From an uncultured Candidatus Saccharibacteria bacterium (lineage in GTDB: Bacteria; Patescibacteriota; Minisyncoccia; Phycocordibacterales; UBA9973), in assembly GCA_964599225.1 (NCBI GenBank), contig CAZRDO010000001.1:15153-79152 (forward strand): a stretch of DNA of 64,000 nucleotides, in the 5' to 3' direction. Made by a program: the position numbers and the translations under genes. Below, piece by piece: positions 3,017 through 42,859 of the stretch (position 1 is the stretch's first letter; the number at the start of each line of letters is the position of its first letter). The notes below the pieces were generated by a model. It saw nothing but the letters and a program-made list of their open reading frames with translations, did not search any database and was not told where the DNA came from.

Positions 3017-3265
3017 CTAAATTTGGAATTAAACCAAGTCACTATCGGAAATAAGGCAACCAGAAAAGACAAGCAATAAAGATCATAATAATCCCTATAA
3101 AGAAGGCGAATATCAATAGATTTTTGTCTATCTGTTTTGGTGTACTAAGCCATACATGATTTCTAATATATCGTTTTTTTTCCGTAGTTTAAGGAAATTT
3201 CGTAAGCTCATAAATATAGTATGAGTTGAAATTTTGCTAATGTAAAGACTGTTAAAATAGACACT

Positions 3266-3277
3266 GAACGAACGTTC
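3266..3277 (+). promoter_or_regulatory. Cheo-type LexA/SOS box (GAAC-N4-GTTC) abutting the lexA start codon
   Basis: Sequence GAACGAACGTTC lies directly before the ATG at 3278 and matches the Gram-positive-type LexA operator core GAAC-N4-GTTC. Possible -35 TTGCTA / -10 TAAAAT just upstream. Confidence 0.55.
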
Positions 3278-3856
3278 ATGTATACTTACCGCATGGAATA
3301 TACTCTTGATCGAATCAGATATTTTTATGAAAAAGAGAATCGCATGCCCTCATATGAGGAAGCGACGAAGCTCTTTGGTTATCAGTCTAAAAACGCTGCT
3401 TATGGCCGTATACGGAAGTTTATCGAAGAAGGCTATCTCGCTAAGAGCGCACGGGGCAAAGTCATTCCTGGGCCTCGATTTCACCAAATTAAGCTTCTCG
3501 GTCTGGTTGAGGCAGGCTTTCCAACCCCAGCTGAAGAGAACCTCCTCGATACGGTGACACTCGATGAGTATTTGGTGAAGAATAAAGAAGCGACGTTCAT
3601 GCTTCAGGTCAAGGGGGATTCGATGTATGACGCAGGTATTCGCGAGGGTGACATGGTGCTTGTCGAGCGTACTCGAGAAGCCAAGAATGGCCAGATTGTG
3701 ATTGCTGAAGTCGATGGGGCATGGACAATGAAATATTTTCGTCGTGAAGGCAAGCATACCTACCTCGAACCTGCTAACAAAAAATATAAACCTATTATTC
3801 CGAAAGAGAGTCTCACCATTACGGCAGTCGTGAAAGCAGTGATTAGGAAATATTAA
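3278..3856 (+). CDS. lexA: LexA repressor (S24 peptidase)
   Basis: N-terminal wHTH followed by the S24 autoprotease module (GDSMYDAGIREGDMVLVER…NGQIVIAEVDGAWTMKYF). Confidence 0.88.
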   Translation: MYTYRMEYTLDRIRYFYEKENRMPSYEEATKLFGYQSKNAAYGRIRKFIEEGYLAKSARGKVIPGPRFHQIKLLGLVEAGFPTPAEENLLDTVTLDEYLVKNKEATFMLQVKGDSMYDAGIREGDMVLVERTREAKNGQIVIAEVDGAWTMKYFRREGKHTYLEPANKKYKPIIPKESLTITAVVKAVIRKY

Positions 3857-3877
3857 CCCGCCAATAATTTTTAAAAT

Positions 3878-4141
3878 ATGCATTATGTCTATGTTTTGAA
3901 AAGTAAAAAGGATGGTGCATTGTATACTGGGTGTACAAAAGATTTAAAGACTAGATTAGACTTACGTAATGCAGGGGAGATTACATCCACAAGACTTCGC
4001 AGGCCATTTATACTCATTTATTACGAAGCTTTGCTCGACAAAAGTGATGCATTCGCGCGAGAGCAGTGGTTAAAGACTGGCTGGGGCAGAAACCACTTAC
4101 ATAAAATTCTTTCTAACTATTTTAAAAATTATGGCGGGTAA
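3878..4141 (+). CDS. GIY-YIG domain small nuclease (UPF0213/YhbQ-like), copy 1
   Basis: 87 aa containing YVYVLKS…LYTGCTKDLKTRL…RRPFILIYYEA (GIY-YIG core). Embedded between lexA and dinB with a 10-nt overlap into dinB. Confidence 0.7.
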   Translation: MHYVYVLKSKKDGALYTGCTKDLKTRLDLRNAGEITSTRLRRPFILIYYEALLDKSDAFAREQWLKTGWGRNHLHKILSNYFKNYGG

Positions 4142-5369
4142 AATGATTCTTCACGTTGATGGCGACGGATTCTTTGCTTACTGCGAAATGGCAGCCTACC
4201 CGGCGCTTCGTGGGAAGCCTGTGGCAGTGGGTGCTGAGCGTGGTATTGTCACTGCTTCAAGCTACCCGGCTAAGCGTATGGGAGTGACGCGAGGGTTACC
4301 TATGTTTAAACTACGTAAAGAATTTCCTAGTGTAACCGTGCTCCCGTCACACTTCGAACTCTACGAAGCCTACTCAGCAAAGCTCTATGGAGTCCTCACG
4401 CGTCACAGTGATAGAGTTGAACGCTACAGTATCGACGAGTGCTTTGCAGTACTTGAAGATAATGGTGAGGATTGGGATATGAGGCTCCGTGCAATCAAGA
4501 CAGAGGTGCAGGAGGATTTAGGAATCACCTTTTCATTTGGCTTAGCAGAGACAAAGTCACTGGCGAAACTCGCCTCGAAATGGCAGAAGCCTGATGGTGC
4601 GACAGTTATCCGTTCTGGAGAAGAAAGGTTATACCTTGAAGGTACACCAATTGGGAAAATTTGGGGTATTGGTAGGCGAACTGCACAAGTGTGTCTCGAG
4701 CGAGGCATTCGTACCGCACTTGATTTGCGGAGTCTCACACTCCAGGATGTCATGCAGTATTTCTCTCTACCTATTGTCGAAATTTGGCATGAACTTGGTG
4801 GGATACCTATGCATGATGTAGGTAATAATGATGAATCTCGTAAATCGCTTCAAGCCACCCGTACGTTTCCTAAAATACGTGGCGATGCATCAGCGGTTTT
4901 TTCAGAACTCTCATACAACACTGAAGTAGTGACAGCGCGGGCAAGAGAAGAAGGGCTTTTTGCACGAGCGGGCAATATATTTTTAAAAACTAATGATTTC
5001 CGCTACTATACACGGGAGTTTGTGCTACCCGAATACAGTGCTGATCCCAAAGAACTCCTTGCGGTAATTGAGCCAATATTCCAGGAGCTTTATAAACCAG
5101 ATGTCTATTATCGAGCTACTGGCATTACACTCAGTGGTTTACGCGAAGAAGATGAGATAGCACGAGATTTATTTGGCGCACGGGAAGCTAAGCTCAAATC
5201 TGATACATCGTTTCTCACGGCGCTTGATAGCGTACATGAGCGCTTTGGTACTCATGCGCTTTTCCTTGGTTCAAGTTTGGGGGCAGTGGCGAGAAGGGAA
5301 GATACTGTCAGTGTGACTGATAGGTATATTCCAGGATTACCGTATCCGTATTTAGGGGAGGTGGTGTAA
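4131..5369 (+). CDS. dinB: DNA polymerase IV (Y-family, DinB)
   Basis: ILHVDGDGFFAYCEM…YSIDECFAVLED catalytic motifs of Y-family polymerases, 412 aa. Confidence 0.88.
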   Translation: MAGKMILHVDGDGFFAYCEMAAYPALRGKPVAVGAERGIVTASSYPAKRMGVTRGLPMFKLRKEFPSVTVLPSHFELYEAYSAKLYGVLTRHSDRVERYSIDECFAVLEDNGEDWDMRLRAIKTEVQEDLGITFSFGLAETKSLAKLASKWQKPDGATVIRSGEERLYLEGTPIGKIWGIGRRTAQVCLERGIRTALDLRSLTLQDVMQYFSLPIVEIWHELGGIPMHDVGNNDESRKSLQATRTFPKIRGDASAVFSELSYNTEVVTARAREEGLFARAGNIFLKTNDFRYYTREFVLPEYSADPKELLAVIEPIFQELYKPDVYYRATGITLSGLREEDEIARDLFGAREAKLKSDTSFLTALDSVHERFGTHALFLGSSLGAVARREDTVSVTDRYIPGLPYPYLGEVV

Positions 5370-5389
5370 ATATAGCTTTTAAACAGAAT

Positions 5390-5764
5390 TTATATATGAC
5401 CTACGTCAAAGGAGATTAATTTTTTAAGATTTTCGCTGGTTACATTATTATGCAAAAGATGTCTAGGAAGTAAGCTATCTTCTATAATATTATCACTCAA
5501 AAAAGGCAGAATATACACATCATTATTTCTCCCTAAAACAACCTTTATTCCTTCATTTTTACACCTTTCGATTATTATATCTATAGGGGTAACATTGCCA
5601 GGATACTCTTTATCATCAGCACTGATTCTCTCGTACACGTCAGATTTAATCCCAGGAAATGGGAATTTCTCTCCACTCTCACTGAGTTCTCTTGCTAACT
5701 CAAGCTCTTCTTTTTTTCTACTCAATTTGCTGTCACCATTTTCAACTTTATTTAGTTCTTCCAT
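5390..5764 (-). CDS. hypothetical protein (acidic, 124 aa)
   Basis: Intact ORF with no recognisable motif. Lies in the accessory stretch between dinB and tRNA-Glu. Confidence 0.4.
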   Translation of the reverse strand: MEELNKVENGDSKLSRKKEELELARELSESGEKFPFPGIKSDVYERISADDKEYPGNVTPIDIIIERCKNEGIKVVLGRNNDVYILPFLSDNIIEDSLLPRHLLHNNVTSENLKKLISFDVGHI

Positions 5765-6187
5765 ATGAAGGAGTATAGCATGGGCAAGGTATGCTTCACA
5801 TTCATATTTAATGTGGTCACAAGTTACTAAGTCTACTCATCATACAAATGATTGTGCGTGGACTAAGTACTTGCGACCCTGTCTGCCGACAGGCAGGCCC
5901 GCCTCGGCGACAAGTATTTTGTCAGCACAAAATCTTGTATACCGCCTGTGGCTTCACAACGCCAGAAAAATCCCAAGCAGTTGGGATTATCTCTAGGCGC
6001 TGTGAGCCACTGTACAGGATGTTCGAACTATACTACACAGTATCGACGATCCTGACTTTGATATACCAGTACATGTACCAAACACCTATCAAAAAGGCAA
6101 AGTTAATATTGCTGCGGTGAATACGATAGGTACATGGTTTATAAATAATAAAAGGCGAGATAGCTCGCCTTAGTAGTTTTGGAATGA

Positions 6188-8351: not shown

Positions 8352-8420
8352 ACCATCATACCTTAGACCATTAGTTAGAAATCGGTCTACATAGGAAAGT
8401 TCGATTCCCACTAGGGTACT
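8352..8420 (+). pseudogene. tRNA 3'-half-like fragment (T-arm/acceptor-like), opposite orientation to tRNA-Glu
   Basis: …GTTCGATTCCCACTAGGGTACT resembles a T-loop (GTTCGATTC) plus an acceptor 3' strand and echoes TTCGATTCCCGGTAGGGTCACC of the adjacent tRNA-Glu. The T-stem cannot pair, so it is not an intact tRNA. A TAGACC…GGTCTA hairpin lies upstream. Confidence 0.25.
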
Positions 8421-8487
8421 AGGTATTTTGGTGAATATGAAGACCTAATAAATCCTTATTTTATAAAGCTTTGGTGATAGTAACAAA

Positions 8488-8561
8488 GGTGACCCTACCG
8501 GGAATCGAACCCGGATTAACGGCTTGAGAAGCCGGCGTCCTAACCGTTAGACGATAGGGCC
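8488..8561 (-). tRNA. tRNA-Glu (anticodon CUC)
   Basis: The reverse complement folds as a canonical cloverleaf: acceptor GGCCCTA/TAGGGTC, D-arm GTCT/GGAC, anticodon loop TTCTCAA (CUC), T-arm CCGGG-TTCGATT-CCCGG and discriminator A. CC but not the full CCA is encoded. Confidence 0.85.
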
Positions 8562-8650
8562 ATGTTGCTAGTTGGTAGGTTGTAGTGAGTAGGAGATAGA
8601 ATATACTACCAGCTACCATTTAGCTCTTGAAATATAACATATAGAATAGG

Positions 8651-8677
8651 AAAAGAAAAAACCTGCTTTAGGCAGGT
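8651..8677 (-). terminator. intrinsic terminator hairpin overlapping the stop of the upstream minus-strand gene
   Basis: Stem ACCTGCC/GGCAGGT flanked by an A-run on the plus strand (T-run on minus) and T7 on the plus strand. Potentially bidirectional. Confidence 0.45.
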
Positions 8678-9222
8678 AGCTTTTTTTGGAGAAATATTTT
8701 CATGAATTCTTCAAAACTCGATTTAGTACTCAATCCTGTTTTATGGAGTCCGAGCTTATCGACTAAGAAGGGCTTATGCTGAACTCCCTTTTCATTTGAG
8801 TATTTAATTTCCACCTCTTCCAGCATTCTAAAGAAATCATATGCTCTACCCCTCCATAGTTTTTCAAATAACTTTGGAACAAGCTTAACGCCCAAGATAT
8901 TTGTTTTTAGATGGAGGGTTTGGGCTTCTGAATGGAGTACAGTAATAATGTGTATAGCTCTGATGTCAAAGCCTGTGTTTAAAGGGTATAGCTGGAATTC
9001 AGCTTCCTTTATTGGTTTTGGGGCTCCTGGATTTGCACCAGATGCAGAGATAAGAGTGGTATCTTTTTCATAAACCGCATCATTTATACGGTCAGGATTA
9101 TACACTTCCCAGGGTTTTGCGAAACCTTTGACATAAGGAAGCACAATAGCAGGGAATTCGCTAATGCTTTGCAGGGCTACTAAATCTATTTTGTAAAACA
9201 TATTTTGACTTTTTCTAGTCAA
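8668..9222 (-). CDS. hypothetical protein (184 aa)
   Basis: Intact ORF with no recognisable motif. Confidence 0.4.
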   Translation of the reverse strand: MTRKSQNMFYKIDLVALQSISEFPAIVLPYVKGFAKPWEVYNPDRINDAVYEKDTTLISASGANPGAPKPIKEAEFQLYPLNTGFDIRAIHIITVLHSEAQTLHLKTNILGVKLVPKLFEKLWRGRAYDFFRMLEEVEIKYSNEKGVQHKPFLVDKLGLHKTGLSTKSSFEEFMKIFLQKKLPA

Positions 9223-9252
9223 AATATACAGGAACTATTTAATTTGTAAAGC

Positions 9253-10173
9253 CTACGAATTTTTATGAAGCCAGAGGTAGATATCTTCGAGGGCTTTGAC
9301 CGCATCACCCGCGGCGATATTGTTCTGATGATAGCGGCCGTCAGTGACGTCGCCTGCTGCCCAAATGCCTGAAACAACAGTCATTTGAGATCTTGGATCA
9401 ACTGGAATCCTATTTAATTCATCGAGTGTTAGCACACCTCTGGCAAAATCACTATTTGGAATCTGGCCAATTTCAACGAAAATTCCCTGCACTGGAAGCA
9501 TGGTTTCATTTCCGGATGAGTCGCGGTAGGTGAGAGAGGAGACCATGCCAGAGCCTTCGATTTTTACAAGTTCAACATTTGTAATAGCTTTGATCTTGGG
9601 ATTAGCAAGAACTTTCTCAACTGTCACTTCATCAGCACGGAACGTATCGCGTCGATGTATGATAGTGACACTTTTACAATAGGCCACAAGTTGTGCCGCG
9701 CTTTCAAACGCTGCATTGCCACCTCCAATAACTGCTACATCCATGTCTGCAAAGAGTGGCCCATCACAAGAGGCGCAATAGGTGATACCTTTGTTTTCAA
9801 ACTCTGCCGCACCAGGAATTTCAAGCTTTCGTCGAGAGCTACCTGAAGTTATGAGAATCGCGCGTGCTTGGTAGCTACCAGTTTCAGTTAGAACGGTGAA
9901 TATTGAGTCAGATTTCGAAATATTTTTGACCTTCTCACCTTCTTTTATGACAAAGCTCTCACTCTCATACTTTTTGGTGTGGGTTTTTAAGTTCTTAGCC
10001 AACTCTTCTCCGGAGATGACTGGTGTACCAATCCAGTTTTCAATGCCTTCTGAGACAGTCGATTGACCGCCAAATTCGGTAGCAATAAGAAGCGTCGAGA
10101 GACGCTTACGTGCGGCATACACTGCTCCAGCCACTCCAGCTGGCCCACCTCCGATAATTATTAGGTCATGCAT
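9253..10173 (-). CDS. trxB: thioredoxin-disulfide reductase
   Basis: IIGGGPAGVAGAVYAAR FAD site, the redox-active CASCDG motif and a GGGNAA NADPH site. Confidence 0.9.
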   Translation of the reverse strand: MHDLIIIGGGPAGVAGAVYAARKRLSTLLIATEFGGQSTVSEGIENWIGTPVISGEELAKNLKTHTKKYESESFVIKEGEKVKNISKSDSIFTVLTETGSYQARAILITSGSSRRKLEIPGAAEFENKGITYCASCDGPLFADMDVAVIGGGNAAFESAAQLVAYCKSVTIIHRRDTFRADEVTVEKVLANPKIKAITNVELVKIEGSGMVSSLTYRDSSGNETMLPVQGIFVEIGQIPNSDFARGVLTLDELNRIPVDPRSQMTVVSGIWAAGDVTDGRYHQNNIAAGDAVKALEDIYLWLHKNS

Positions 10174-10236
10174 AAGTAAATAGTAAGTAGTAAATGGTAA
10201 ATAGGAGGACAGTATACAGGACTAGTCAGTCTGAGG

Positions 10237-10262
10237 CAAAATAAAAACTCTACAATGTAGAG
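10237..10262 (-). terminator. rho-independent terminator of the secreted-protein gene
   Basis: On the minus strand: CTCTACA-t-TGTAGAG hairpin followed by TTTTTATTTTG. Confidence 0.6.
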
Positions 10263-10673
10263 TTAGTTGAGCTTACCTTCAAGGTCTATTATTTGTATTT
10301 CGACAAGTCGATATTCAATTACAATTTTATATAGATGTTTATCATCAGTAGTAGAAACGTTTACTGTTTCTTTACTATAAACCGAATCTTTTTTGATGAT
10401 ATCTTTCGAAATATACCACTCTGGTTTAATAGCATTTTCTACTCCATCAAGTGTAACGGTGACCTTTTGGATCACCACTTTGTCACCAGCTTTAAATAGC
10501 CACAATGGAGCTTCTTCACAATTACGTATAACTACAGATTGCCCGTTACTAAGGACCTTAGCCTTTGCTCTCTGTTTTGTCTGGTCTTGGGCCAGTGCGC
10601 AATTAGTCCCAACACTTAGAATTAAAAGAAAAGTGATAATTTTTTTCATGACTACGATTTTTTCTAAGTCCAC
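10263..10673 (-). CDS. secreted hypothetical protein with signal peptide
   Basis: An internal start at 10649 gives MKKIITFLLILSVGTNCALA (Sec signal) followed by a ~110 aa beta-rich domain. Confidence 0.5.
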   Translation of the reverse strand: MDLEKIVVMKKIITFLLILSVGTNCALAQDQTKQRAKAKVLSNGQSVVIRNCEEAPLWLFKAGDKVVIQKVTVTLDGVENAIKPEWYISKDIIKKDSVYSKETVNVSTTDDKHLYKIVIEYRLVEIQIIDLEGKLN

Positions 10674-10699
10674 CTTACTATGCTTTATATAAATGTCAA

Positions 10700-10721
10700 A
10701 GTCGCGCCGTAAGGCGCGACT
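10700..10721 (-). terminator. GC hairpin terminator downstream of ftsZ
   Basis: Perfect AGTCGCGCC-GTAA-GGCGCGACT hairpin (9 bp stem, GNRA-like loop) between the ftsZ stop and the next gene, with T-rich flanks. Confidence 0.55.
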
Positions 10722-10761
10722 TATTACTATTTACTACTAACTATTTTCTATTTACTGATTT

Positions 10762-11934
10762 CTATCGTTTCGTTCTTCGCAAAAACGCAGGGACATTCCA
10801 TTCTTCATCGTCATCACCTTCAAAGACGCTCTCATCAACTTTCTTTGGCGCTGTTGCACTCTCGGAACGTTTTACATAATCGGAAGGCAAGGTGTTGTGG
10901 ATCTCCTTTTTTGGCGCATCGAGAGGAGTGTCATTCTTGGACCCTGCTGCTTGAGTGAAAAGAGATTTTTTTGGTCCATCAGTAGGGAAGCCGGTTGCGA
11001 TGACAGTAACTTTGATTTCACCTTTTTTCAAGCGCTCATCCTTAATCGTACCGAAGATAACCTTGGCATCTTTATCGATACTCTCAGTGATAATTCGAGC
11101 TGCTTCTTGGATTTCAAGTATACCGAGATCGTCGCCACCAGAGATTGCAAAGAGTACACCGTGAGCGCCATTGATTGAGATATCGAGAAGTGGAGAGTTG
11201 ATCGCTTCAAGCGCAGCGTGTTCTGCACGCTTGTCGCCACTTGCTGTTCCAATACCCATGAGGGCTGAACCAGCGTCTTGCATGACTGCGCGAATATCTG
11301 CGAAGTCGACGTTGATCACGCCTGGAGTAGTGATGAGATCAGTGATACCTTCAACTGCTTGGCGAAGAATATCATCACAGAGTGCAAAGGCTTGTTTGAA
11401 TGACATTTCCTTACTTGCAATCATGAGGAGTCGATCATTTGGAATGACGATGATTGCATCAACTTCGTTTGAGAGTTCTGCGAAAGCCGCTTCAGCAATG
11501 CGTCCACGTTGGGCACCTTCGAAGGCAAATGGTCGTGTGACTACGCCGACTGTGAGAATACCTTGCTCCTTGGCAGCGCGAGCAACAATAGGGGACGCTC
11601 CGGATCCTGTACCACCACCGAGTCCGGTTGCGATAAATACCATGTCAGCACCTTTGATGACATCTTGGATTTCAGCTTTGGTTTCTTCTGCAGCTTTTCT
11701 TCCCACATCTGGACTCATGCCAGCGCCAAGACCCTTGGTAAGGTTCTTACCAATGTGAATTTTCTTATCAGCAAGTGATTTGTGTAAGTCCTGCGTATCG
11801 GTATTCATGGCGATGAATTCGACACCCTTGACTTTGGAATTAATCATGTGATTAATTGCATTTCCACCCGATCCGCCTACGCCGATTACCTTAATTCGGG
11901 CAAAAGATTCTATGTCTGGATTAACTTTTGGCAT
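10762..11934 (-). CDS. ftsZ: cell division GTPase FtsZ
   Basis: GGGTGSG tubulin signature within VIGVGGSGGNAINHM…FIATGLGGGTGSGASPIVA, 390 aa with an acidic C-terminal tail. Confidence 0.95.
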   Translation of the reverse strand: MPKVNPDIESFARIKVIGVGGSGGNAINHMINSKVKGVEFIAMNTDTQDLHKSLADKKIHIGKNLTKGLGAGMSPDVGRKAAEETKAEIQDVIKGADMVFIATGLGGGTGSGASPIVARAAKEQGILTVGVVTRPFAFEGAQRGRIAEAAFAELSNEVDAIIVIPNDRLLMIASKEMSFKQAFALCDDILRQAVEGITDLITTPGVINVDFADIRAVMQDAGSALMGIGTASGDKRAEHAALEAINSPLLDISINGAHGVLFAISGGDDLGILEIQEAARIITESIDKDAKVIFGTIKDERLKKGEIKVTVIATGFPTDGPKKSLFTQAAGSKNDTPLDAPKKEIHNTLPSDYVKRSESATAPKKVDESVFEGDDDEEWNVPAFLRRTKR

Positions 11935-36574: not shown

Positions 36575-36925
36575 ATGACTACTACTTACACAATTGATGC
36601 AACAGGAAAAGCGCTTGGCCGTGTCGCGAGCGAGGCTGCTAAAATGCTTATGGGCAAAACACTACCTTCGTACCGAACTAACACTGTCCCAACAACTACA
36701 GTGACGGTAACTAACGTTAAGCTTCTTAAGCTGACGGAGAAGAAGCTGCAAGACACTTCACATGCAAGGTATTCAGGTTATCCAGGAGGACTCAAATATA
36801 CTACCTATGCTAAGACTATTGAGAAAGCTGGACACCAAGCGCTCCTCCTCAAAGCTATTAGTGGCATGATCCCGAAGAATAAACTTCATAAAGAAATTCT
36901 TAGTCATCTTAAAATTAGCGAATAA
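36575..36925 (+). CDS. rplM: 50S ribosomal protein L13
   Basis: …[21 protein letters not shown]…GMIPKNKL. Confidence 0.88.
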
Positions 36926-36927
36926 GT

Positions 36928-37329
36928 ATGTCAGCAACTACAAAATACATCGAAACAATCGGACGACGCAAAACTGCCACAGCTCGTGTACGTCTTGAGA
37001 AAGCCAAAGATTTTAAAATTACAATAAACGGTAAGTCACTCAACGAATATTTCAAAACTGAAACAGAGCGAAACTCAATCAAGGAACCTTTTGACAAAGC
37101 TGGTATTGATTCTCACTATACTATTTCTGTTGTAGTGCAAGGTGGGGGACTCATGTCACAGTCGGGAGCGGTTCGCCATGGTATCTCACGCGCGCTTATC
37201 ACGCTTGATGAAGAACTCCGTGGAGCACTCAAGAAATCAGGACTTCTCAAACGTGACCCTCGTGTGAAAGAGCGCCGCAAGTTCGGTCTCAAAAAAGCTC
37301 GCAAGGCTCCACAGTGGTCAAAACGTTAA
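36928..37329 (+). CDS. rpsI: 30S ribosomal protein S9
   Basis: [12 protein letters not shown]…[19 protein letters not shown]…[12 protein letters not shown]. Confidence 0.92.
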
Positions 37330-37345
37330 CACGCCACACAAAATC

Positions 37346-37367
37346 CCGCTCCAAGCGGTTTTTTGTT
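37346..37367 (+). terminator. intrinsic terminator after rpsI
   Basis: CCGCT-cca-AGCGG short hairpin followed by TTTTTTGTTG. Confidence 0.5.
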
Positions 37368-37384
37368 GTATTGAAGAGAGATAT

Positions 37385-37981
37385 TTGTATAATAGACATA
37401 CAATGAAAGATGAAGATACAAAAAATGAATTAAATCCTGAGGAAGATGACGATGTGGTTGAATTAGTCTTTAATGACGACGGGGAGGAAGATCTCAAAGC
37501 GACACTGAAGAAATTCAGAGCTGATCTAAAGGCTTGTCGTAAAGAGAAGGAAGAATATCTGGCTCAACTTCAGCGTGAACGGGCAGATTTCATAAACTAT
37601 AAAAAGGAAGAGGACTCACGATTTAAGCGAAGCATTGAATACAATCAAGAGCGCTTTATCAGTGATCTTCTTCCTGTGCTTGATTCATATGATATGGCTT
37701 TCTCGAACAAAGAAGCCTGGGAGAAAGTAGATAAGAATTGGCGCATGGGCGTGGAGTATATTCACCAGCAAATTTTGAAAGTACTCGCTGAGTATGGCGT
37801 CACACCAATTGAAGTAAAAATAGGGGACGCTTTTGACCATAATATTCACGAACCGATTGAAAATACTGAAACTGCTGATGTCTCACAGAGTAATACAATA
37901 TCAGAAATTACACAGTCAGGTTATAAAGTAGGAGAACGGGTACTTCGTCCTGCCAGAGTAAAAGTTTACAAGAGTACTTAG
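37385..37981 (+). CDS. grpE: nucleotide exchange factor GrpE
   Basis: Coiled-coil N-terminus and the GrpE core (…ERADFINYKKEEDSRFKRSIEYNQERFISDLLPVLDSYDMA…). Confidence 0.88.
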   Translation: MYNRHTMKDEDTKNELNPEEDDDVVELVFNDDGEEDLKATLKKFRADLKACRKEKEEYLAQLQRERADFINYKKEEDSRFKRSIEYNQERFISDLLPVLDSYDMAFSNKEAWEKVDKNWRMGVEYIHQQILKVLAEYGVTPIEVKIGDAFDHNIHEPIENTETADVSQSNTISEITQSGYKVGERVLRPARVKVYKST

Positions 37982-38505
37982 CTGAAGAAGGTCTTTGAGA
38001 GCCCAGTTAGGGTCTCAGAATCAACAGTGCTTGATAGGATAATTATCATTTCCGATGATAACCCCAGATCTCTTTTTATGTTTTCAAACAAATGTTCATA
38101 AGGGTATGGAGAAATCCAGACAGAATTTTTAAGCATCACAAAACCAGCCTTTTTAAGTAAATAGCGAAGGCTTTCACGTTCATCTTTTCGACTCTCAGGT
38201 AGATCTAAGAGTATAATCCGCCATTTACCATCCCATTCATTCAAAAGTGAATTCTTAGTCGTAAGTTTAAGGCTATTGGCTTTAACTCGGCCAGTTTTAG
38301 AAAGTCTGGCATATTCATTTTGACCTGATGATATCGACTCAATTAAGCCGGAGTCAGTAAGATTTGAAAGTGAGCGATTTATAGCATAAACCTGCTTCTG
38401 CGTTGGCTTTTGTACTACTTTTTTGACCAAGGTAGGCAAAGAAACAGCCCTGCTTTCGGAGAGGATTTTTATGATTTCCTTTGAAATTTCAGGCTTTTTC
38501 TTCAT
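37978..38505 (-). CDS. winged-helix transcriptional regulator with PaaX-C/Cas2-like C-terminal domain
   Basis: N-terminal wHTH (…VSLPTLVKKVVQKPTQKQVYAINRSLSNLTDSGLI). C-terminal WDGKWRIILLDLPE…LRYLLKKAGFVMLKNSVWISP pattern. Convergent with grpE (4-nt overlap) and divergent from the dnaK unit. Confidence 0.45.
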   Translation of the reverse strand: MKKKPEISKEIIKILSESRAVSLPTLVKKVVQKPTQKQVYAINRSLSNLTDSGLIESISSGQNEYARLSKTGRVKANSLKLTTKNSLLNEWDGKWRIILLDLPESRKDERESLRYLLKKAGFVMLKNSVWISPYPYEHLFENIKRDLGLSSEMIIILSSTVDSETLTGLSKTFFS

Positions 38506-38509
38506 ATAT

Positions 38510-38537
38510 TTGACAGTTTATCACACATGACTATAAT
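38510..38537 (+). promoter_or_regulatory. consensus sigma-70 promoter (TTGACA-16-TATAAT) for the DUF3467-dnaK unit
   Basis: TTGACA at 38510-38515 and TATAAT at 38532-38537, with a 16-nt spacer. Confidence 0.6.
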
Positions 38538-38543
38538 ATCAAC

Positions 38544-38569
38544 ATCTATTTAGCGGTCGCGAAATAGAT
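38544..38569. promoter_or_regulatory. 8-N10-8 palindromic operator-like site at the predicted transcription start
   Basis: ATCTATTT-agcggtcgcg-AAATAGAT begins ~7 nt after the -10 hexamer. It is not a CIRCE sequence. Confidence 0.45.
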
Positions 38570-38609
38570 GTATAATACCTTATAAAATTACTAATTAAGA
38601 ACAAATACT

Positions 38610-38885
38610 ATGGTAGATCCAAAAAAAGTAGATTTTAATCAATTACCTAAGAAATTCTGTGATGGAGCACTTGGGGCATTTAGTAAGGAAGCGATAATGT
38701 TTTGTATGACATCAGGTAATAACCTAGACCCATACGCTACGACGCCACAAGTTGCTAAAAGTATCGCATTATTTTTCACACGACAGATAGAAAATTACGA
38801 GAAGCAGTTTGGAGTAATCGATACAACGCCAGCATCTATACCAAGTCCACTCCAATCATCAGATTTTGAAGATAAAAATAAATAA
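38610..38885 (+). CDS. small protein, DUF3467-like (recognised from memory of the family pattern)
   Basis: 91 aa with …TTPQVAKSIALFFTRQIENYEKQFGVI…. Directly upstream of dnaK. Confidence 0.4.
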   Translation: MVDPKKVDFNQLPKKFCDGALGAFSKEAIMFCMTSGNNLDPYATTPQVAKSIALFFTRQIENYEKQFGVIDTTPASIPSPLQSSDFEDKNK

Positions 38886-38908
38886 TTATTAATTAAAATA
38901 TAATATAT

Positions 38909-40807
38909 ATGTCAAAAATAATTGGAATCGATTTAGGAACCACCAACTCAGCATTCGCAATTGTTGAAGGTGGACAGCCAAAAATAATTGAAAACATCGA
39001 GGGTAACCGTACGACACCTTCAGTACTAGCTATTACTAAAACTGGCGATCGCCTCGTTGGACTTCTGGCCAAGCGACAAGCGGTTACCAACCCACTTAAT
39101 ACAATTTACGAGATTAAGCGCTTCATGGGTCATCGCTTTTCTGATCCAGATGTTCAGAAGGATATCAAAAACCTGCCATACAAGGTTCGCGAAGGCTCTG
39201 ATGGAGGTGTTGAAGTTGAGATCATGGAGAAGTGGTATAGGCCAGAGGAAATTTCAGCTATGATTCTTCAGAAAATAAAGGCTGACGCTGAAGCAAAGCT
39301 CGGTGAGAAAGTGACTGAAGCAGTCATTACAGTGCCTGCGTATTTCAATGATGCCCAGCGCAAAGCTACCAAAGATGCCGGCGCCATTGCCGGTCTTGAT
39401 GTCAAACGTATCATTAACGAACCGACTGCAGCCGCATTGGCTTATGGGCTCAACTCAAGAAAGAATGACAAAATTGTTGTCTATGACTTGGGTGGCGGAA
39501 CCTTTGATGTCTCAGTGCTTGAAGTTGGTGATGATGTCATTGAAGTCAAATCTACCGATGGTGACGTACATCTCGGTGGAAGTGATTTTGATCGTGTCAT
39601 CATGAACTGGATTGCTGATGAATTCAAGAAAGAATCAGGTATTGATGTGACCAAGGATACACTTGCGCTTCAGCGCTTAAAAGAAGCTGCTGAGAAAGCC
39701 AAGCATGAGCTCTCAACTGTTCCAGAAACTGAAATCAATATTCCGTTTATCACGAGTGATGCTTCTGGCCCTCGCCACTTACTCTTGAAACTAAGTCGCG
39801 CAACACTTGAGTCTCTCACAAAGGAATTTATTGATCGCTCAATTGAAATTCTCGGCCGCGCCATTAACGCCTCAGGATTTACCAAAACTGATATAAACGA
39901 CATTATTCTTGTTGGAGGTCAGACACGAATGCCAGCAGTGTTTGAAGCAGTGAAATCATTCTTTGGCAAAGAGCCAAACCGCACGATTAATCCTGACGAA
40001 GTCGTCGCTCTTGGAGCAGCAACGCAAGGAGGTGTGCTGAAGGGTGAAGTGCGCGATATCTTGCTCCTTGATGTCATTCCACTCTCACTCGGTATTGAAA
40101 CCCTTGGCTCAGTGGCAACCAAACTTATCGAACGTAATACCACAATCCCTACAGCACGCTCCCAAACATTCTCAACTGCTGCTGATAACCAGACAAGTGT
40201 CGATATTCATATTGTGCAAGGGGAGCGTCCGATGGCTTCTGACAACAAATCACTTGGACGATTTATCCTTGATGGTATCCCGCCATCCCCACGAGGCATT
40301 CCACAAATTGAGGTTACGTTCGATGTTGATGCCAATGGTATCCTCTCTGTGACTGCTAAGGATAAAGCCTCGGGCAAGAGCCAATCTATTCGTATTGAAG
40401 CAACCTCTGGTTTAACAGACGCTGACATTAAGCGTATGCAAGACGAAGCGGCAACACATGCGTCTGAAGATGCTAAAAAGAAAGAAGTTGCAGAAGTCAA
40501 AAACACTGCTGAGATGACCCTCTATACTGCAGAGAAGGCACTCAAAGATAACGAATCAAAACTGCCAGAGGATCTCAAAACTTCTGTAAATGAGAAAATG
40601 ACTGCGCTTAGAGGAGTGAAAGATGGTCAGGATATGGAGGCAATTAAAACTGCCACAATGAACCTTTCAACTGAGATGTCAAAAATGGGTGAAGCTATGG
40701 CAAAAACTGGAGGTACTAATGAGACACCAGCAGGAGATGCTCAAGCCCCTGAGGAACAGGGGCCAGAGATCAAAGACGCTGAAACAGGGGAAGCGCCAAA
40801 AAGCTAG
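38909..40807 (+). CDS. dnaK: molecular chaperone DnaK (Hsp70)
   Basis: [18 protein letters not shown] and the full substrate-binding and lid domains, 632 aa. Confidence 0.97.
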
Positions 40808-40825
40808 TTATCTGTATTGAAAAAT

Positions 40826-40860
40826 AAAAGACGCGGGCTATGTAGCCTGCGTTTTTTGTT
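40826..40860. terminator. bidirectional terminator after dnaK
   Basis: ACGCGGGCTA-tg-TAGCCTGCGT hairpin followed by TTTTTTGTTG and preceded by AAAAATAAAAG. Overlaps the stop of the convergent minus-strand ORF. Confidence 0.6.
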
Positions 40861-41320
40861 GTATGGAGAGATTTTTTTGCTGAGAATTGATTTTATCAAT
40901 CTTATCTCTCAGCTCCTCAGTCTCTTTCGAAGGTCCTTTCTTTTTTATCAGGCAAGAACGCTGAAAATGATATGCCTGTTTCTGTTTATATAATATTTCT
41001 TGTTGAGAAATATATTCATCAATTAGAAAAAATATTTCAACAATTGCCCTAATTTTTCCCTTATTTAAGTCAAGGACTTTGCTAAGATGACTATGTGCAT
41101 CAAGCTTATTTTTTTGACCAACAATGCAAGCAGTCAACTGATTTACCAAATCCTCTGATATTGCATTTGAACCAATGGTTGTGATTAATTCGCTATTGAT
41201 AAAATTAGCAATTTCAACCGCCCTCCGTTGGGGCTTTATATGCCGTATCGTATCAAGTACTTGATGACAAAAAGGGTTGGGGAAATAATTTCTTAATAAT
41301 TTAATTACACTCAGGATCAT
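40838..41320 (-). CDS. hypothetical protein (160 aa)
   Basis: Intact ORF, convergent with dnaK. No recognisable motif. Confidence 0.4.
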   Translation of the reverse strand: MILSVIKLLRNYFPNPFCHQVLDTIRHIKPQRRAVEIANFINSELITTIGSNAISEDLVNQLTACIVGQKNKLDAHSHLSKVLDLNKGKIRAIVEIFFLIDEYISQQEILYKQKQAYHFQRSCLIKKKGPSKETEELRDKIDKINSQQKNLSIQQKTQAT

Positions 41321-41395
41321 AATATGCTTATTTTCTCCTTATATAATAAGGCTAAATTGAGTTTTTGTCAAACCTGAGCTTTTGTATCCTAACTT

Positions 41396-42859
41396 GTGGG
41401 AGCGAGATTAATTCACTATACTGAAAGCATGAACGCCTATTACCCAACAATCGGCCTCGAAATCCACGCCGAACTCAAAACAAATTCAAAAATGTTCTGT
41501 GGCTGTAAGAATGATCCTGATGAAGAGAGTCCTAACACAAATATCTGTCCTGTCTGTACAGCAGAGCCCGGTGCACTTCCCGTGCCAAACAAGAAGGCGA
41601 TTGAACACGTCATTCGTACAGGTCTCGCAGTTGGTGGGACGATTGCTGATTTCACAGAATTCGATCGTAAGAATTATTTCTATCCTGATATTCCCAAAGG
41701 ATATCAGATCTCTCAGTATAAATACCCGATCGTCTCAGGTGGTATGCTTGCCGACTTCTCACTCACTCGCATCCATCTCGAGGAAGATACTGCGAACAAC
41801 AAGCACGATCGTGGGGACTATTCTCTGATTGATTTTAATCGCTCTGGGGTACCACTGATGGAACTTGTTACTGAACCGCATACATTCGAGAGTGCTGAAA
41901 ACGCGGCCAAAGCGGCAGGGAAGTTTGCGAGAGAGTTTCAGTTACTTCTCCTCTATCTCGGAGTGTCAGAAGCTAATATGGAGAAAGGTGAGCTTCGAGT
42001 TGAGGCAAATATTTCATTATCAAACAGTAAAGAGAAGCTCAATGATAATAGAGTCGAAGTCAAAAATTTGAACTCATTCCGATCAGCTGAGAGAGCAATC
42101 ATATTTGAACTCAACCGGATGCAGAAATTATTTGAAGAAGGAAAGGAAAGCGAAATTGTCCAGGAAACTCGTGGTTGGAACGAAGCGAAGCAGGAGACAT
42201 TTTCGCAGCGAACAAAGGAAAATGCACAGGATTACCGCTATTTCCCAGAACCAGACATCCCTAAGTTTAAACTGCACACCCTCTTTGATATTGAGAAATT
42301 AAAAACTGAACTTCCAGAATTACCAGAGGCTAAACGAGCTCGCTATCGAAGTGAATATGGAATCAAGGATGAAGATATTGAAAGCTATGTCACTGATGTG
42401 GCACTCGGAGCCTGGTTTGAAGAAGTTTCAAGCATACTTCAAGATAAAGAAAAAGTTAAAGTTGCTTCCAACTATGTCACCTCTGATCTTATAGGAATTC
42501 TAAAGAAAGATAGTCCTTCAAAAATGCCCAAGGCTCTGCACTTTGCAGAATTGATTTCTATGGTTAGCGATGGATTGCTTACTTCACGAAGCGCAAAAGA
42601 TATATTACTTGTACTTACAACGACAGAGATTTCGCCAAACCTCTATGCCAAGGAAAAAGGATTACTACAGAGCACGGACAAGGATGCATTCAAAAAAATG
42701 GTACAAAATGTCATAGCTTCAAATCCGAAAGTGGTGGCTGATTACAAATCTGGCAAGGGAGCATCTCTCCAGTTTTTGGTAGGACAAATTATGAAAGAAT
42801 CCAAGGGCTCTGCAAACCCGAAAGTCATTACAGAACTTCTCACTGAGCTTTTACAATAA
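41396..42859 (+). CDS. gatB: Asp-tRNA(Asn)/Glu-tRNA(Gln) amidotransferase subunit B
   Basis: IGLEIHAELKT…CGCKND…NICPVCTAEPGALP and a C-terminal GatB/YqeY domain. Probable start at 41429 (MNAYYP). Confidence 0.9.
   Translation: MGARLIHYTESMNAYYPTIGLEIHAELKTNSKMFCGCKNDPDEESPNTNICPVCTAEPGALPVPNKKAIEHVIRTGLAVGGTIADFTEFDRKNYFYPDIPKGYQISQYKYPIVSGGMLADFSLTRIHLEEDTANNKHDRGDYSLIDFNRSGVPLMELVTEPHTFESAENAAKAAGKFAREFQLLLLYLGVSEANMEKGELRVEANISLSNSKEKLNDNRVEVKNLNSFRSAERAIIFELNRMQKLFEEGKESEIVQETRGWNEAKQETFSQRTKENAQDYRYFPEPDIPKFKLHTLFDIEKLKTELPELPEAKRARYRSEYGIKDEDIESYVTDVALGAWFEEVSSILQDKEKVKVASNYVTSDLIGILKKDSPSKMPKALHFAELISMVSDGLLTSRSAKDILLVLTTTEISPNLYAKEKGLLQSTDKDAFKKMVQNVIASNPKVVADYKSGKGASLQFLVGQIMKESKGSANPKVITELLTELLQ

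Follow-up and report, generated by a model that had tools for sequence, protein, structure and literature searches.

A truncated PaaX-like regulator encoded divergently from dnaK, and a conserved 28-bp palindrome between them: a putative chaperone-gene repressor system of Paceibacteria/Minisyncoccia

The described systems closest to the one reported here are two repressor systems of chaperone genes and one catabolic repressor. The first is HrcA with its operator CIRCE (controlling inverted repeat of chaperone expression; TTAGCACTC-N9-GAGTGCTAA), found at hrcA-grpE-dnaK-dnaJ and groESL of Bacillus subtilis. The second, HspR with its operator HAIR (HspR-associated inverted repeat; CTTGAGT-N7-ACTCAAG), acts on the dnaK operon of Streptomyces, Helicobacter and Campylobacter and provides the paradigm of a feedback loop that depends on DnaK. 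The third, PaaX, the repressor of the phenylacetate catabolon of E. coli and Pseudomonas, is autoregulated and competes with RNA polymerase at divergent promoters; its operator is unusually long (PaaX box, TGATTC-N27-GAATCA) and its PaaX_C domain is credited with phenylacetyl-CoA binding (PMC9493321). The present analysis concerns a 64-kb stretch (the window; ~41% G+C) of contig CAZRDO010000001.1 from an uncultured Candidatus Saccharibacteria bacterium (assembly GCA_964599225.1, positions 15,153–79,152), in which the gene of a 175-aa regulator, termed here REG, is divergent from dnaK. Between the two genes lies a 28-bp palindrome, referred to below as the operator (Table 1).

The most probable explanation of this arrangement, to which we assign a probability of roughly 0.65, is that REG is an autoregulated repressor of the dnaK transcription unit, acting through the 28-bp operator. 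An initial annotation of the window, made without database searches, had proposed that dnaK is controlled by the adjacent regulator, and the comparative sequence data presented below support that proposal. As in the HrcA/CIRCE system, (i) a dedicated (putative) repressor gene is located in the grpE-dnaK neighbourhood, (ii) a sigma-70 (SigA-type) promoter has a long inverted repeat at its transcription start or right behind it, (iii) the predicted targets are chaperone genes, and (iv) the regulator has no small-molecule ligand domain. Unlike HrcA, REG belongs to an unrelated family: it shows no similarity to HrcA and matches PaaX_M and, weakly, Cas2. Its predicted operator, unlike CIRCE, is a contiguous palindrome, and grpE appears to lie outside its control. 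No CIRCE with up to 3 mismatches is present in the window, in agreement with the initial annotation, which had found none near grpE or dnaK; the related loci, viewed as stretches of ~12 kb (809 kb in total), contain only two 4-mismatch matches, neither of them upstream of dnaK or grpE. A tblastn search with B. subtilis HrcA returned nothing in the window or in these 809 kb. With HspR, REG would share the character of an autoregulated repressor genetically tied to dnaK, as well as a small regulon comprising dnaK and clpB. However, HspR is a MerR-family protein encoded inside the dnaK operon, whereas REG is PaaX-like, contains no MerR domain (Pfam) and is divergent from dnaK. No HAIR element was found at the locus, the matches in the window being at chance level and far off.

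The initial annotation had described the site as a dyad of 8-bp arms, ATCTATTT-N10-AAATAGAT. This dyad exists (38544–38569, starting 6 nt past the -10 hexamer) and has no second exact match anywhere in the 64 kb (3 matches with up to 3 mismatches, vs. ~1 expected by chance), but it was mis-parsed, as it forms the inner part of the 28-bp element and its “spacer” is conserved and belongs to the site. Alignment of REG-dnaK intergenic regions yielded the consensus CAAGTATTTCGCGACCACGAAATACTTG, whose best-conserved part is the former N10 spacer (cGyG-AC/GT-CrCg). Three positions (G11, G13 and C16) do not vary at all, and four others (C1, A2, C18 and G28) hardly vary. When the window was scanned with a position weight matrix (PWM), the operator was the sole site scoring at least 8 bits (32.0 bits), while the maximum reached in 20 shuffled sequences was 14.8 bits. 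This uniqueness, together with the conservation across relatives described below, rules out a chance palindrome.

Scanning of one genome per GTDB species revealed at least 320 contig stretches that encode a REG relative, and the best 80 of these were used for comparison of the loci. In virtually all of the 80 species-level loci REG and dnaK are divergently oriented, with grpE downstream of REG in convergent orientation and the ribosomal protein gene S9 beyond it. In 72 of them the operator is placed between REG and dnaK, within ~200 nt of the REG start (usually 13–45 nt). In 7 of the remaining 8 it is 0.3–3.7 kb away from REG, still upstream of the dnaK unit. The site is thus strongly conserved upstream of dnaK (79/80 genome loci), and no other site of at least 14 bits occurs in the 809 kb of DNA flanking the 80 loci. 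The fact that the operator follows dnaK, and not REG, in 7 of the 8 loci split by insertions supports its action on the dnaK unit. The two closest relatives (REG proteins 82% and 89% identical) carry the same P1 promoter and an identical operator. In one of these two, the 94-nt intergenic stretch does not differ from that of the window, whereas the DNA identity of the REG gene is only 78%; the intergenic DNA thus seems to be under strong constraint.

The initial annotation had classified REG as a winged helix-turn-helix regulator. The winged helix is indeed present, but the protein can be assigned more specifically, since residues 89–163 match PF20803 (PaaX_M, the “central Cas2-like domain” of PaaX; E 2.4e-21), with an additional weak match to Cas2. 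In the AlphaFold (AF2) model (mean predicted local distance difference test score, pLDDT, 83.9), residues 1–82 form a winged helix (helices H4-17, H23-30 and H36-51, a β-hairpin at 55–68 and helix H70-82), and residues 95–173 form a ferredoxin-like β-α-β domain. Foldseek searches with this model returned as top matches PaaX of E. coli W (8a39, E 1.5e-6), the PaaX-like protein of Jannaschia (3l09) and Rv0674 (3kfw), followed by winged helices of the MarR/ArsR type; the template modelling scores (TM-scores) were low (0.40–0.45). A PDB profile search with the REG sequence gave weak winged-helix matches only, so that the fold search was needed to reveal the kinship with PaaX. By fold and by Pfam, PaaX (8a39, 3l09) is the closest described protein, and REG has both its N-terminal winged helix and its Cas2-like central dimerisation domain. 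Unlike PaaX, REG is half the size, terminating at residue 175, and PaaX_C (PF08223) gave no match in it. The PaaX model TIGR02277 scores 43.3 bits, far below its cutoff of 264.55, with an alignment restricted to model positions 37–138 of 279. No paa genes are located near REG, which is surrounded by grpE, dnaK and genes of ribosomal proteins, and the operator differs from the PaaX box, for which the window contains 3 matches with 2 mismatches each (5.8 expected by chance), all far from the locus. REG has a PaaX-like fold and is not a PaaX.

A clustered protein collection contains 1802 REG homologues, most of them 172–206 aa long and ~55–66% identical; where a source is named, it belongs to Paceibacteria, Nomurabacteria or Minisyncoccia. 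In an alignment of 36 members, 50 positions are invariant. The tight REG group (~21 clusters at 50% identity, E up to 1e-30) is nested in a larger family of short PaaX-like proteins (~180–200 aa, winged helix plus PaaX_M) that comprises 1280 clusters at E up to 1e-10 and may be one of the major transcription-factor families of these bacteria, as yet unstudied. A link to dnaK is not common to all short PaaX-like proteins: the genes of two distant relatives of REG (P0255 and P0408; L219 3686–4273 and L221 5001–5570) lie beside tRNA-synthetase, KsgA or pyrophosphatase genes, with neither a dnaK link nor the operator motif. Both features are thus properties of the REG orthogroup, and this is the pattern that co-evolution of a regulator with its operator would produce.

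The association was also examined in the reverse direction, using a degenerate 22-nt operator pattern as the query against a metagenome collection. Among the 120 matches listed, ~100 adjoin dnaK and/or REG, although they had been retrieved by the DNA motif alone. Enough sequence to judge (650 nt or more on the far side) was available at 74 of the dnaK-linked sites, and 73 of these have REG. Nearly all of the other matches are either chance occurrences (in high-GC bacteria, in plant-like retroelements or other eukaryotic DNA, or within coding sequence) or weak and ambiguous; the exception is a site in front of clpB in L158, described below. These data bear on the possibility that the palindrome is the operator of another factor, REG being a conserved neighbour with a different target. 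Such a view could draw on the 0.3–3.7 kb that separate site and REG in 7 loci, on the unrelated genes adjoining distant members of the REG family, and on the indirect nature of the link between REG and the site. We nevertheless consider it quite improbable, given the near-complete co-occurrence, the short distance of the site from the REG start codon in most loci, the confinement of the motif to lineages with the REG orthogroup, and the joint lack of dnaK linkage and motif in the distant paralogues, which is what a regulator-operator pair predicts.

Two unusual arrangements were noted among the REG loci. A 14-kb metagenome contig (L132) contains the REG-operator-dnaK locus twice (3151–5901 and 8356–11106), in inverted orientation and with identical sequences, and is probably a palindromic assembly artefact and not a real duplication. 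A single metagenome-assembled genome (GCA_023267435.1; L008 and L009) has two REG copies, both accompanied by the operator; one of them faces a 94-aa gene followed by dnaK, and the other an unrelated open reading frame (ORF), beyond which the 690 nt at hand contain no dnaK. This could reflect either a mixture of strains or a genuine second locus.

The dnaK unit of the window is preceded by a perfect sigma-70 promoter (P1, TTGACA-16-TATAAT), as the initial annotation had pointed out; it is the sole 12/12 match within 36900–41500. The same annotation had placed the dyad at the +1 position of this promoter. For promoter analysis, 168 distinct loci were anchored on the operator, and P1-type promoters were defined as TTGACA (up to 1 mismatch), a spacer of 16–18 nt and then TATACT, TATAAT or TATATT. 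The layout is retained in 141 of the 168 loci, in which 3–11 nt (mode 9) separate the end of the promoter from operator position 1, so that the operator covers approximately +1 to +28. A second dnaK promoter (P2) was recognized in ~112 of the 168 loci, with its -35 hexamer (TTGTCA, TTGCTA or TTGCAA) in the right arm of the operator and TATAAT 17 nt further on; in the window P2 is absent and only P1 is present. On the opposite strand, the REG promoter either borders on the left arm of the operator or extends into it. In the window the -35 hexamer of the candidate REG promoter abuts the left end of the operator, and equivalent minus-strand promoters are found in relatives. The REG start codon is located within the P1 -35 region (TTGACAT on the dnaK strand) in ~100 of the 168 loci, where REG and the dnaK unit are packed back to back; in the window (38503–38515) it is inside this hexamer or right beside it. 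The REG transcript of the window would start a few nt before the ATG, with a very short leader or none, and since the -10 hexamer of the REG promoter is only ~6–9 nt from the ATG, the REG mRNA is probably leaderless or nearly so. Every one of these arrangements would put the site on core promoter elements or on a transcription start, as is typical in appearance of a repressor operator.

P2 raises the possibility that REG binds the palindrome as an activator or a promoter switch, e.g. activating P2 or the clpB promoter from approximately -47 while occluding P1. The right arm provides the -35 hexamer (TTGTCA/TTGCTA) at the P2-type loci and at clpB (see below), with the site centre near -47. We nonetheless consider this role unlikely: the window and many relatives possess only P1, with the site in a position (+1 to +28) able only to hinder RNA polymerase, and the near-consensus hexamers of P1 and P2 should need no activation. 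Moreover, to our knowledge, all dedicated chaperone-gene regulators of this layout (HrcA, HspR, CtsR and RheA) are repressors.

Another possibility is that the palindrome acts as RNA, i.e. as a 5′-terminal stem-loop stabilising the dnaK mRNA, a thermosensor or a processing site, and that REG regulates something else. P1 transcription would begin at the palindrome, or immediately before it, in the 141 loci mentioned above, and the 5′ end of the window transcript can fold into a hairpin with a 9-bp outer stem (83-nt stretch; minimum free energy -12.4 kcal/mol, z -2.2). Several observations make this very improbable. At most pairs the complementarity of the arms, determined for 131 distinct 28-mers, is no higher than it would be if the half-sites were independent; in the outer arms it falls below this expectation, and a slight excess is seen only at pairs 10-19 and 12-17. 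Single bases are invariant and do not covary. The operator centre (positions 13–16; 38555–38558 in the window) is GACC or GGTC in ~90% of the sites and GAAC/GTTC in most others, it occurs in either orientation relative to dnaK, and its central step is almost never self-complementary (0.02 observed vs. 0.46 expected). The -35 region of P2, like that of the clpB promoter, overlaps with the element, which would therefore lie outside the transcript concerned. Its distance from the dnaK start codon ranges from 18 to 1734 nt (L001–L080), it touches no ribosome-binding site, the operator region matches no Rfam family, and the element co-occurs with REG at 73 of 74 sites. The pattern fits sequence-specific recognition of DNA by a protein and not a function in RNA. 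The three alternatives (another factor, an activator or switch, and an RNA element) are all less likely than repression of the dnaK unit by REG.

The reach of the predicted regulon was evaluated at clpB and grpE. The initial annotation had suggested a genome scan for further copies of the dyad, for example upstream of groES or clpB, and the motif was indeed found at clpB in some lineages. In L158 (36% G+C) the motif (3401–3428) is located 86 nt upstream of a 908-aa clpB. Among eight further Paceibacteria-type lineages compared, L205/L207 carries a 21.8-bit site (2901–2928) upstream of clpB, followed by TTGTCA-17-TATATT, the site overlapping the clpB -35 hexamer; L211/L212 has only a degenerate half-site at clpB (2373–2400), and clpB of the six other lineages has no site. 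In L158 as in L205/L207, the operator is fused to a TTGTCA -35 hexamer. A universal clpB operator is thus ruled out, and on the basis of its upstream sequences clpB would be part of the regulon in some lineages only. The clpB neighbourhood is otherwise conserved (initiation factor IF-2, DUF4446, cysteine desulfurase, clpB). Upstream of grpE, the operator is absent in 84 of 85 relatives, the remaining one having an operator-like site, and grpE seems to lie outside the regulon. In the window, grpE is preceded by its own terminator-promoter junction after S9 (37346–37402; CCGCTCCAAGCGG-T6, then TTGTAT-16-TATAAT), with no operator.

From the anatomy of the site, its conservation and specificity, and its co-occurrence with the regulator gene, we infer that REG is the protein that binds the palindrome and that its binding represses. 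In the mechanism envisaged, REG would bind the 28-bp palindrome, most likely as a dimer or a dimer of dimers, directly downstream of P1 and directly upstream of its own divergent promoter. Once bound, it would keep RNA polymerase either from initiating transcription of the DUF3467-like-dnaK unit or from escaping its promoter, and would probably also limit its own synthesis. The result would be a small proteostasis regulon made up of REG and dnaK, the latter alone or together with dnaJ and variable cargo genes, and in some lineages also of clpB; grpE would be left outside. Because REG has no counterpart of the ligand-binding C-terminal domain of true PaaX, release would be expected in response to protein-folding stress and not to a small molecule; either REG itself would be thermolabile, or a chaperone acting as co-repressor, DnaK for instance, would be titrated away. 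Co-repression of REG by DnaK is purely conjectural.

Several findings weigh against this explanation. A palindrome of 28–38 bp is long for a single winged-helix dimer, and simple two-fold recognition gives no account of a site centre (GACC/GGTC) that is almost never self-complementary. At P2-type loci the position of the site near -47 would also suit an activator. Where insertions part REG from dnaK, REG lacks an operator of its own, so that autoregulation would not be obligatory. The motif at clpB occurs in only 2 of the 9 lineages examined, apart from one degenerate half-site, and together with the missing operator at grpE this means that the system would not constitute a full heat-shock regulon.

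A broader interpretation, which we hold tentatively and at somewhat less than even odds, is that REG defines a new family of heat-shock-type repressors alongside HrcA, HspR, CtsR and RheA, which arose from the PaaX scaffold when the ligand-binding domain was lost. Such a family would control dnaK (and in some lineages clpB) across Paceibacteria/Minisyncoccia through the 28-bp operator, and would sense proteotoxic stress by means of a thermolabile Cas2-like dimer or DnaK titration.

The features of the locus are summarized in Table 1. The gene order in the window is a ribosomal-protein/rpoA block (ending with the L13 and S9 genes), grpE, REG, a 91-aa ORF, dnaK, a convergent 160-aa ORF and gatB. 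REG and grpE are convergent and overlap by 4 nt (37978–37981, stop codons counted), which confirms the initial description of an opposite-strand regulator gene between grpE and dnaK.

Table 1. Coordinates of the features identified at the grpE-REG-dnaK locus (numbering of the 64-kb window).
Feature	Position	Strand	Evidence and remarks
grpE	37385..37981	+	ORF from TTG 37385, likely start ATG 37403, TAG 37979-37981; Pfam GrpE E 5.5e-41
REG, 175-aa truncated PaaX-like regulator	37978..38505	-	PF20803 E 2.4e-21; winged helix ~1–82, Cas2-like PaaX_M domain ~89–173
P1, sigma-70 promoter TTGACA-16-TATAAT	38510..38537	+	consensus scan; predicted to drive the DUF3467-like gene and dnaK
Candidate REG promoter TTGATA-16-TAAACT, TG upstream of -10	38515..38542	-	consensus scan
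Palindromic operator, 28 bp, CATCTATTTAGCGGTCGCGAAATAGATG	38543..38570		PWM 32.0 bits; approximately +1 to +28 of P1
DUF3467-like gene, 91 aa	38610..38885	+	weak Pfam match; first gene of the putative operator-controlled unit
dnaK, 632 aa	38909..40807	+	Pfam HSP70 E 2.8e-246; 23 nt past the DUF3467-like gene
Intrinsic terminator 3′ of dnaK	40832..40861	+	8-bp stem CGCGGGCT/AGCCTGCG, 4-nt loop, T6 run

The assignment of the 91-aa protein to DUF3467, proposed in the initial annotation, stands for the orthologous group: all 7 orthologues match PF11950 (best E 4.5e-5), but the match of the window protein itself is weak (E 0.009, 16.4 bits, cutoff 25). The gene is located between the operator and dnaK in the window and in L016, L035, L064, L123 and L177 (in L112 the contig ends within the locus), and away from dnaK in L091. 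The slot between operator and dnaK is a hot spot for unrelated genes, including those encoding a J-domain membrane protein (L010), P-loop kinase-like proteins (L003, L028 and L040) and small membrane or coiled-coil proteins, all of which would be co-regulated with dnaK. As the content of this slot differs among relatives, the DUF3467-like gene is best viewed as variable cargo (a passenger) and not as a core part of the system.

The strong terminator and the missing dnaJ behind dnaK, both recorded in the initial annotation, were found in the window. The terminator (CGCGGGCT-atgt-AGCCTGCG-TTTTTT, 40832–40857, with a GC-rich stem) was spotted by eye and had been missed by a simple terminator scan. 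The 160-aa ORF (40838–41320, minus strand), which has no family match in Pfam or NCBIfam, is convergent with dnaK and terminates within this hairpin; the terminator may therefore be bidirectional. No dnaJ, groEL, clpB, hrcA or second REG copy was detected in the 64-kb window by tblastn, and the DNA retrieved for the relatives likewise contains no groEL. However, dnaJ is located directly 3′ of dnaK in many relatives, so that its absence is a feature of this lineage and not of the system. In another part of the window, inspection of the translations by eye revealed genes for a LexA-like protein (3278–3856; 192 aa) and then a DinB/Pol IV-like protein (4131–5369; 412 aa); the two might form a small SOS module.

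Hardly anything is known about how genes are regulated in the candidate phyla radiation, whose members have tiny genomes and very few transcription factors and account for a large share of bacterial diversity. No description of the REG-operator-dnaK system was found in the open-access full-text literature, and REG and its operator, present in this bacterium and well over a hundred relatives, have the look of an as yet undescribed repressor system of the heat-shock type. They provide, for this group of bacteria, a concrete regulator-operator-target triplet for a central chaperone, with REG relatives in at least 320 contig stretches and the operator checked in ~170 loci. Owing to the consensus nature of P1, the triplet is testable with E. 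coli RNA polymerase, or with purified protein and a 28-bp oligonucleotide. If the proposed role of REG is true, the automatic (Joint Genome Institute, JGI) annotation of REG genes would be corrected, a new protein family would join the short list of chaperone-gene repressors, and a catabolic repressor scaffold, that of PaaX, would have been cut down and re-used for the control of proteostasis.

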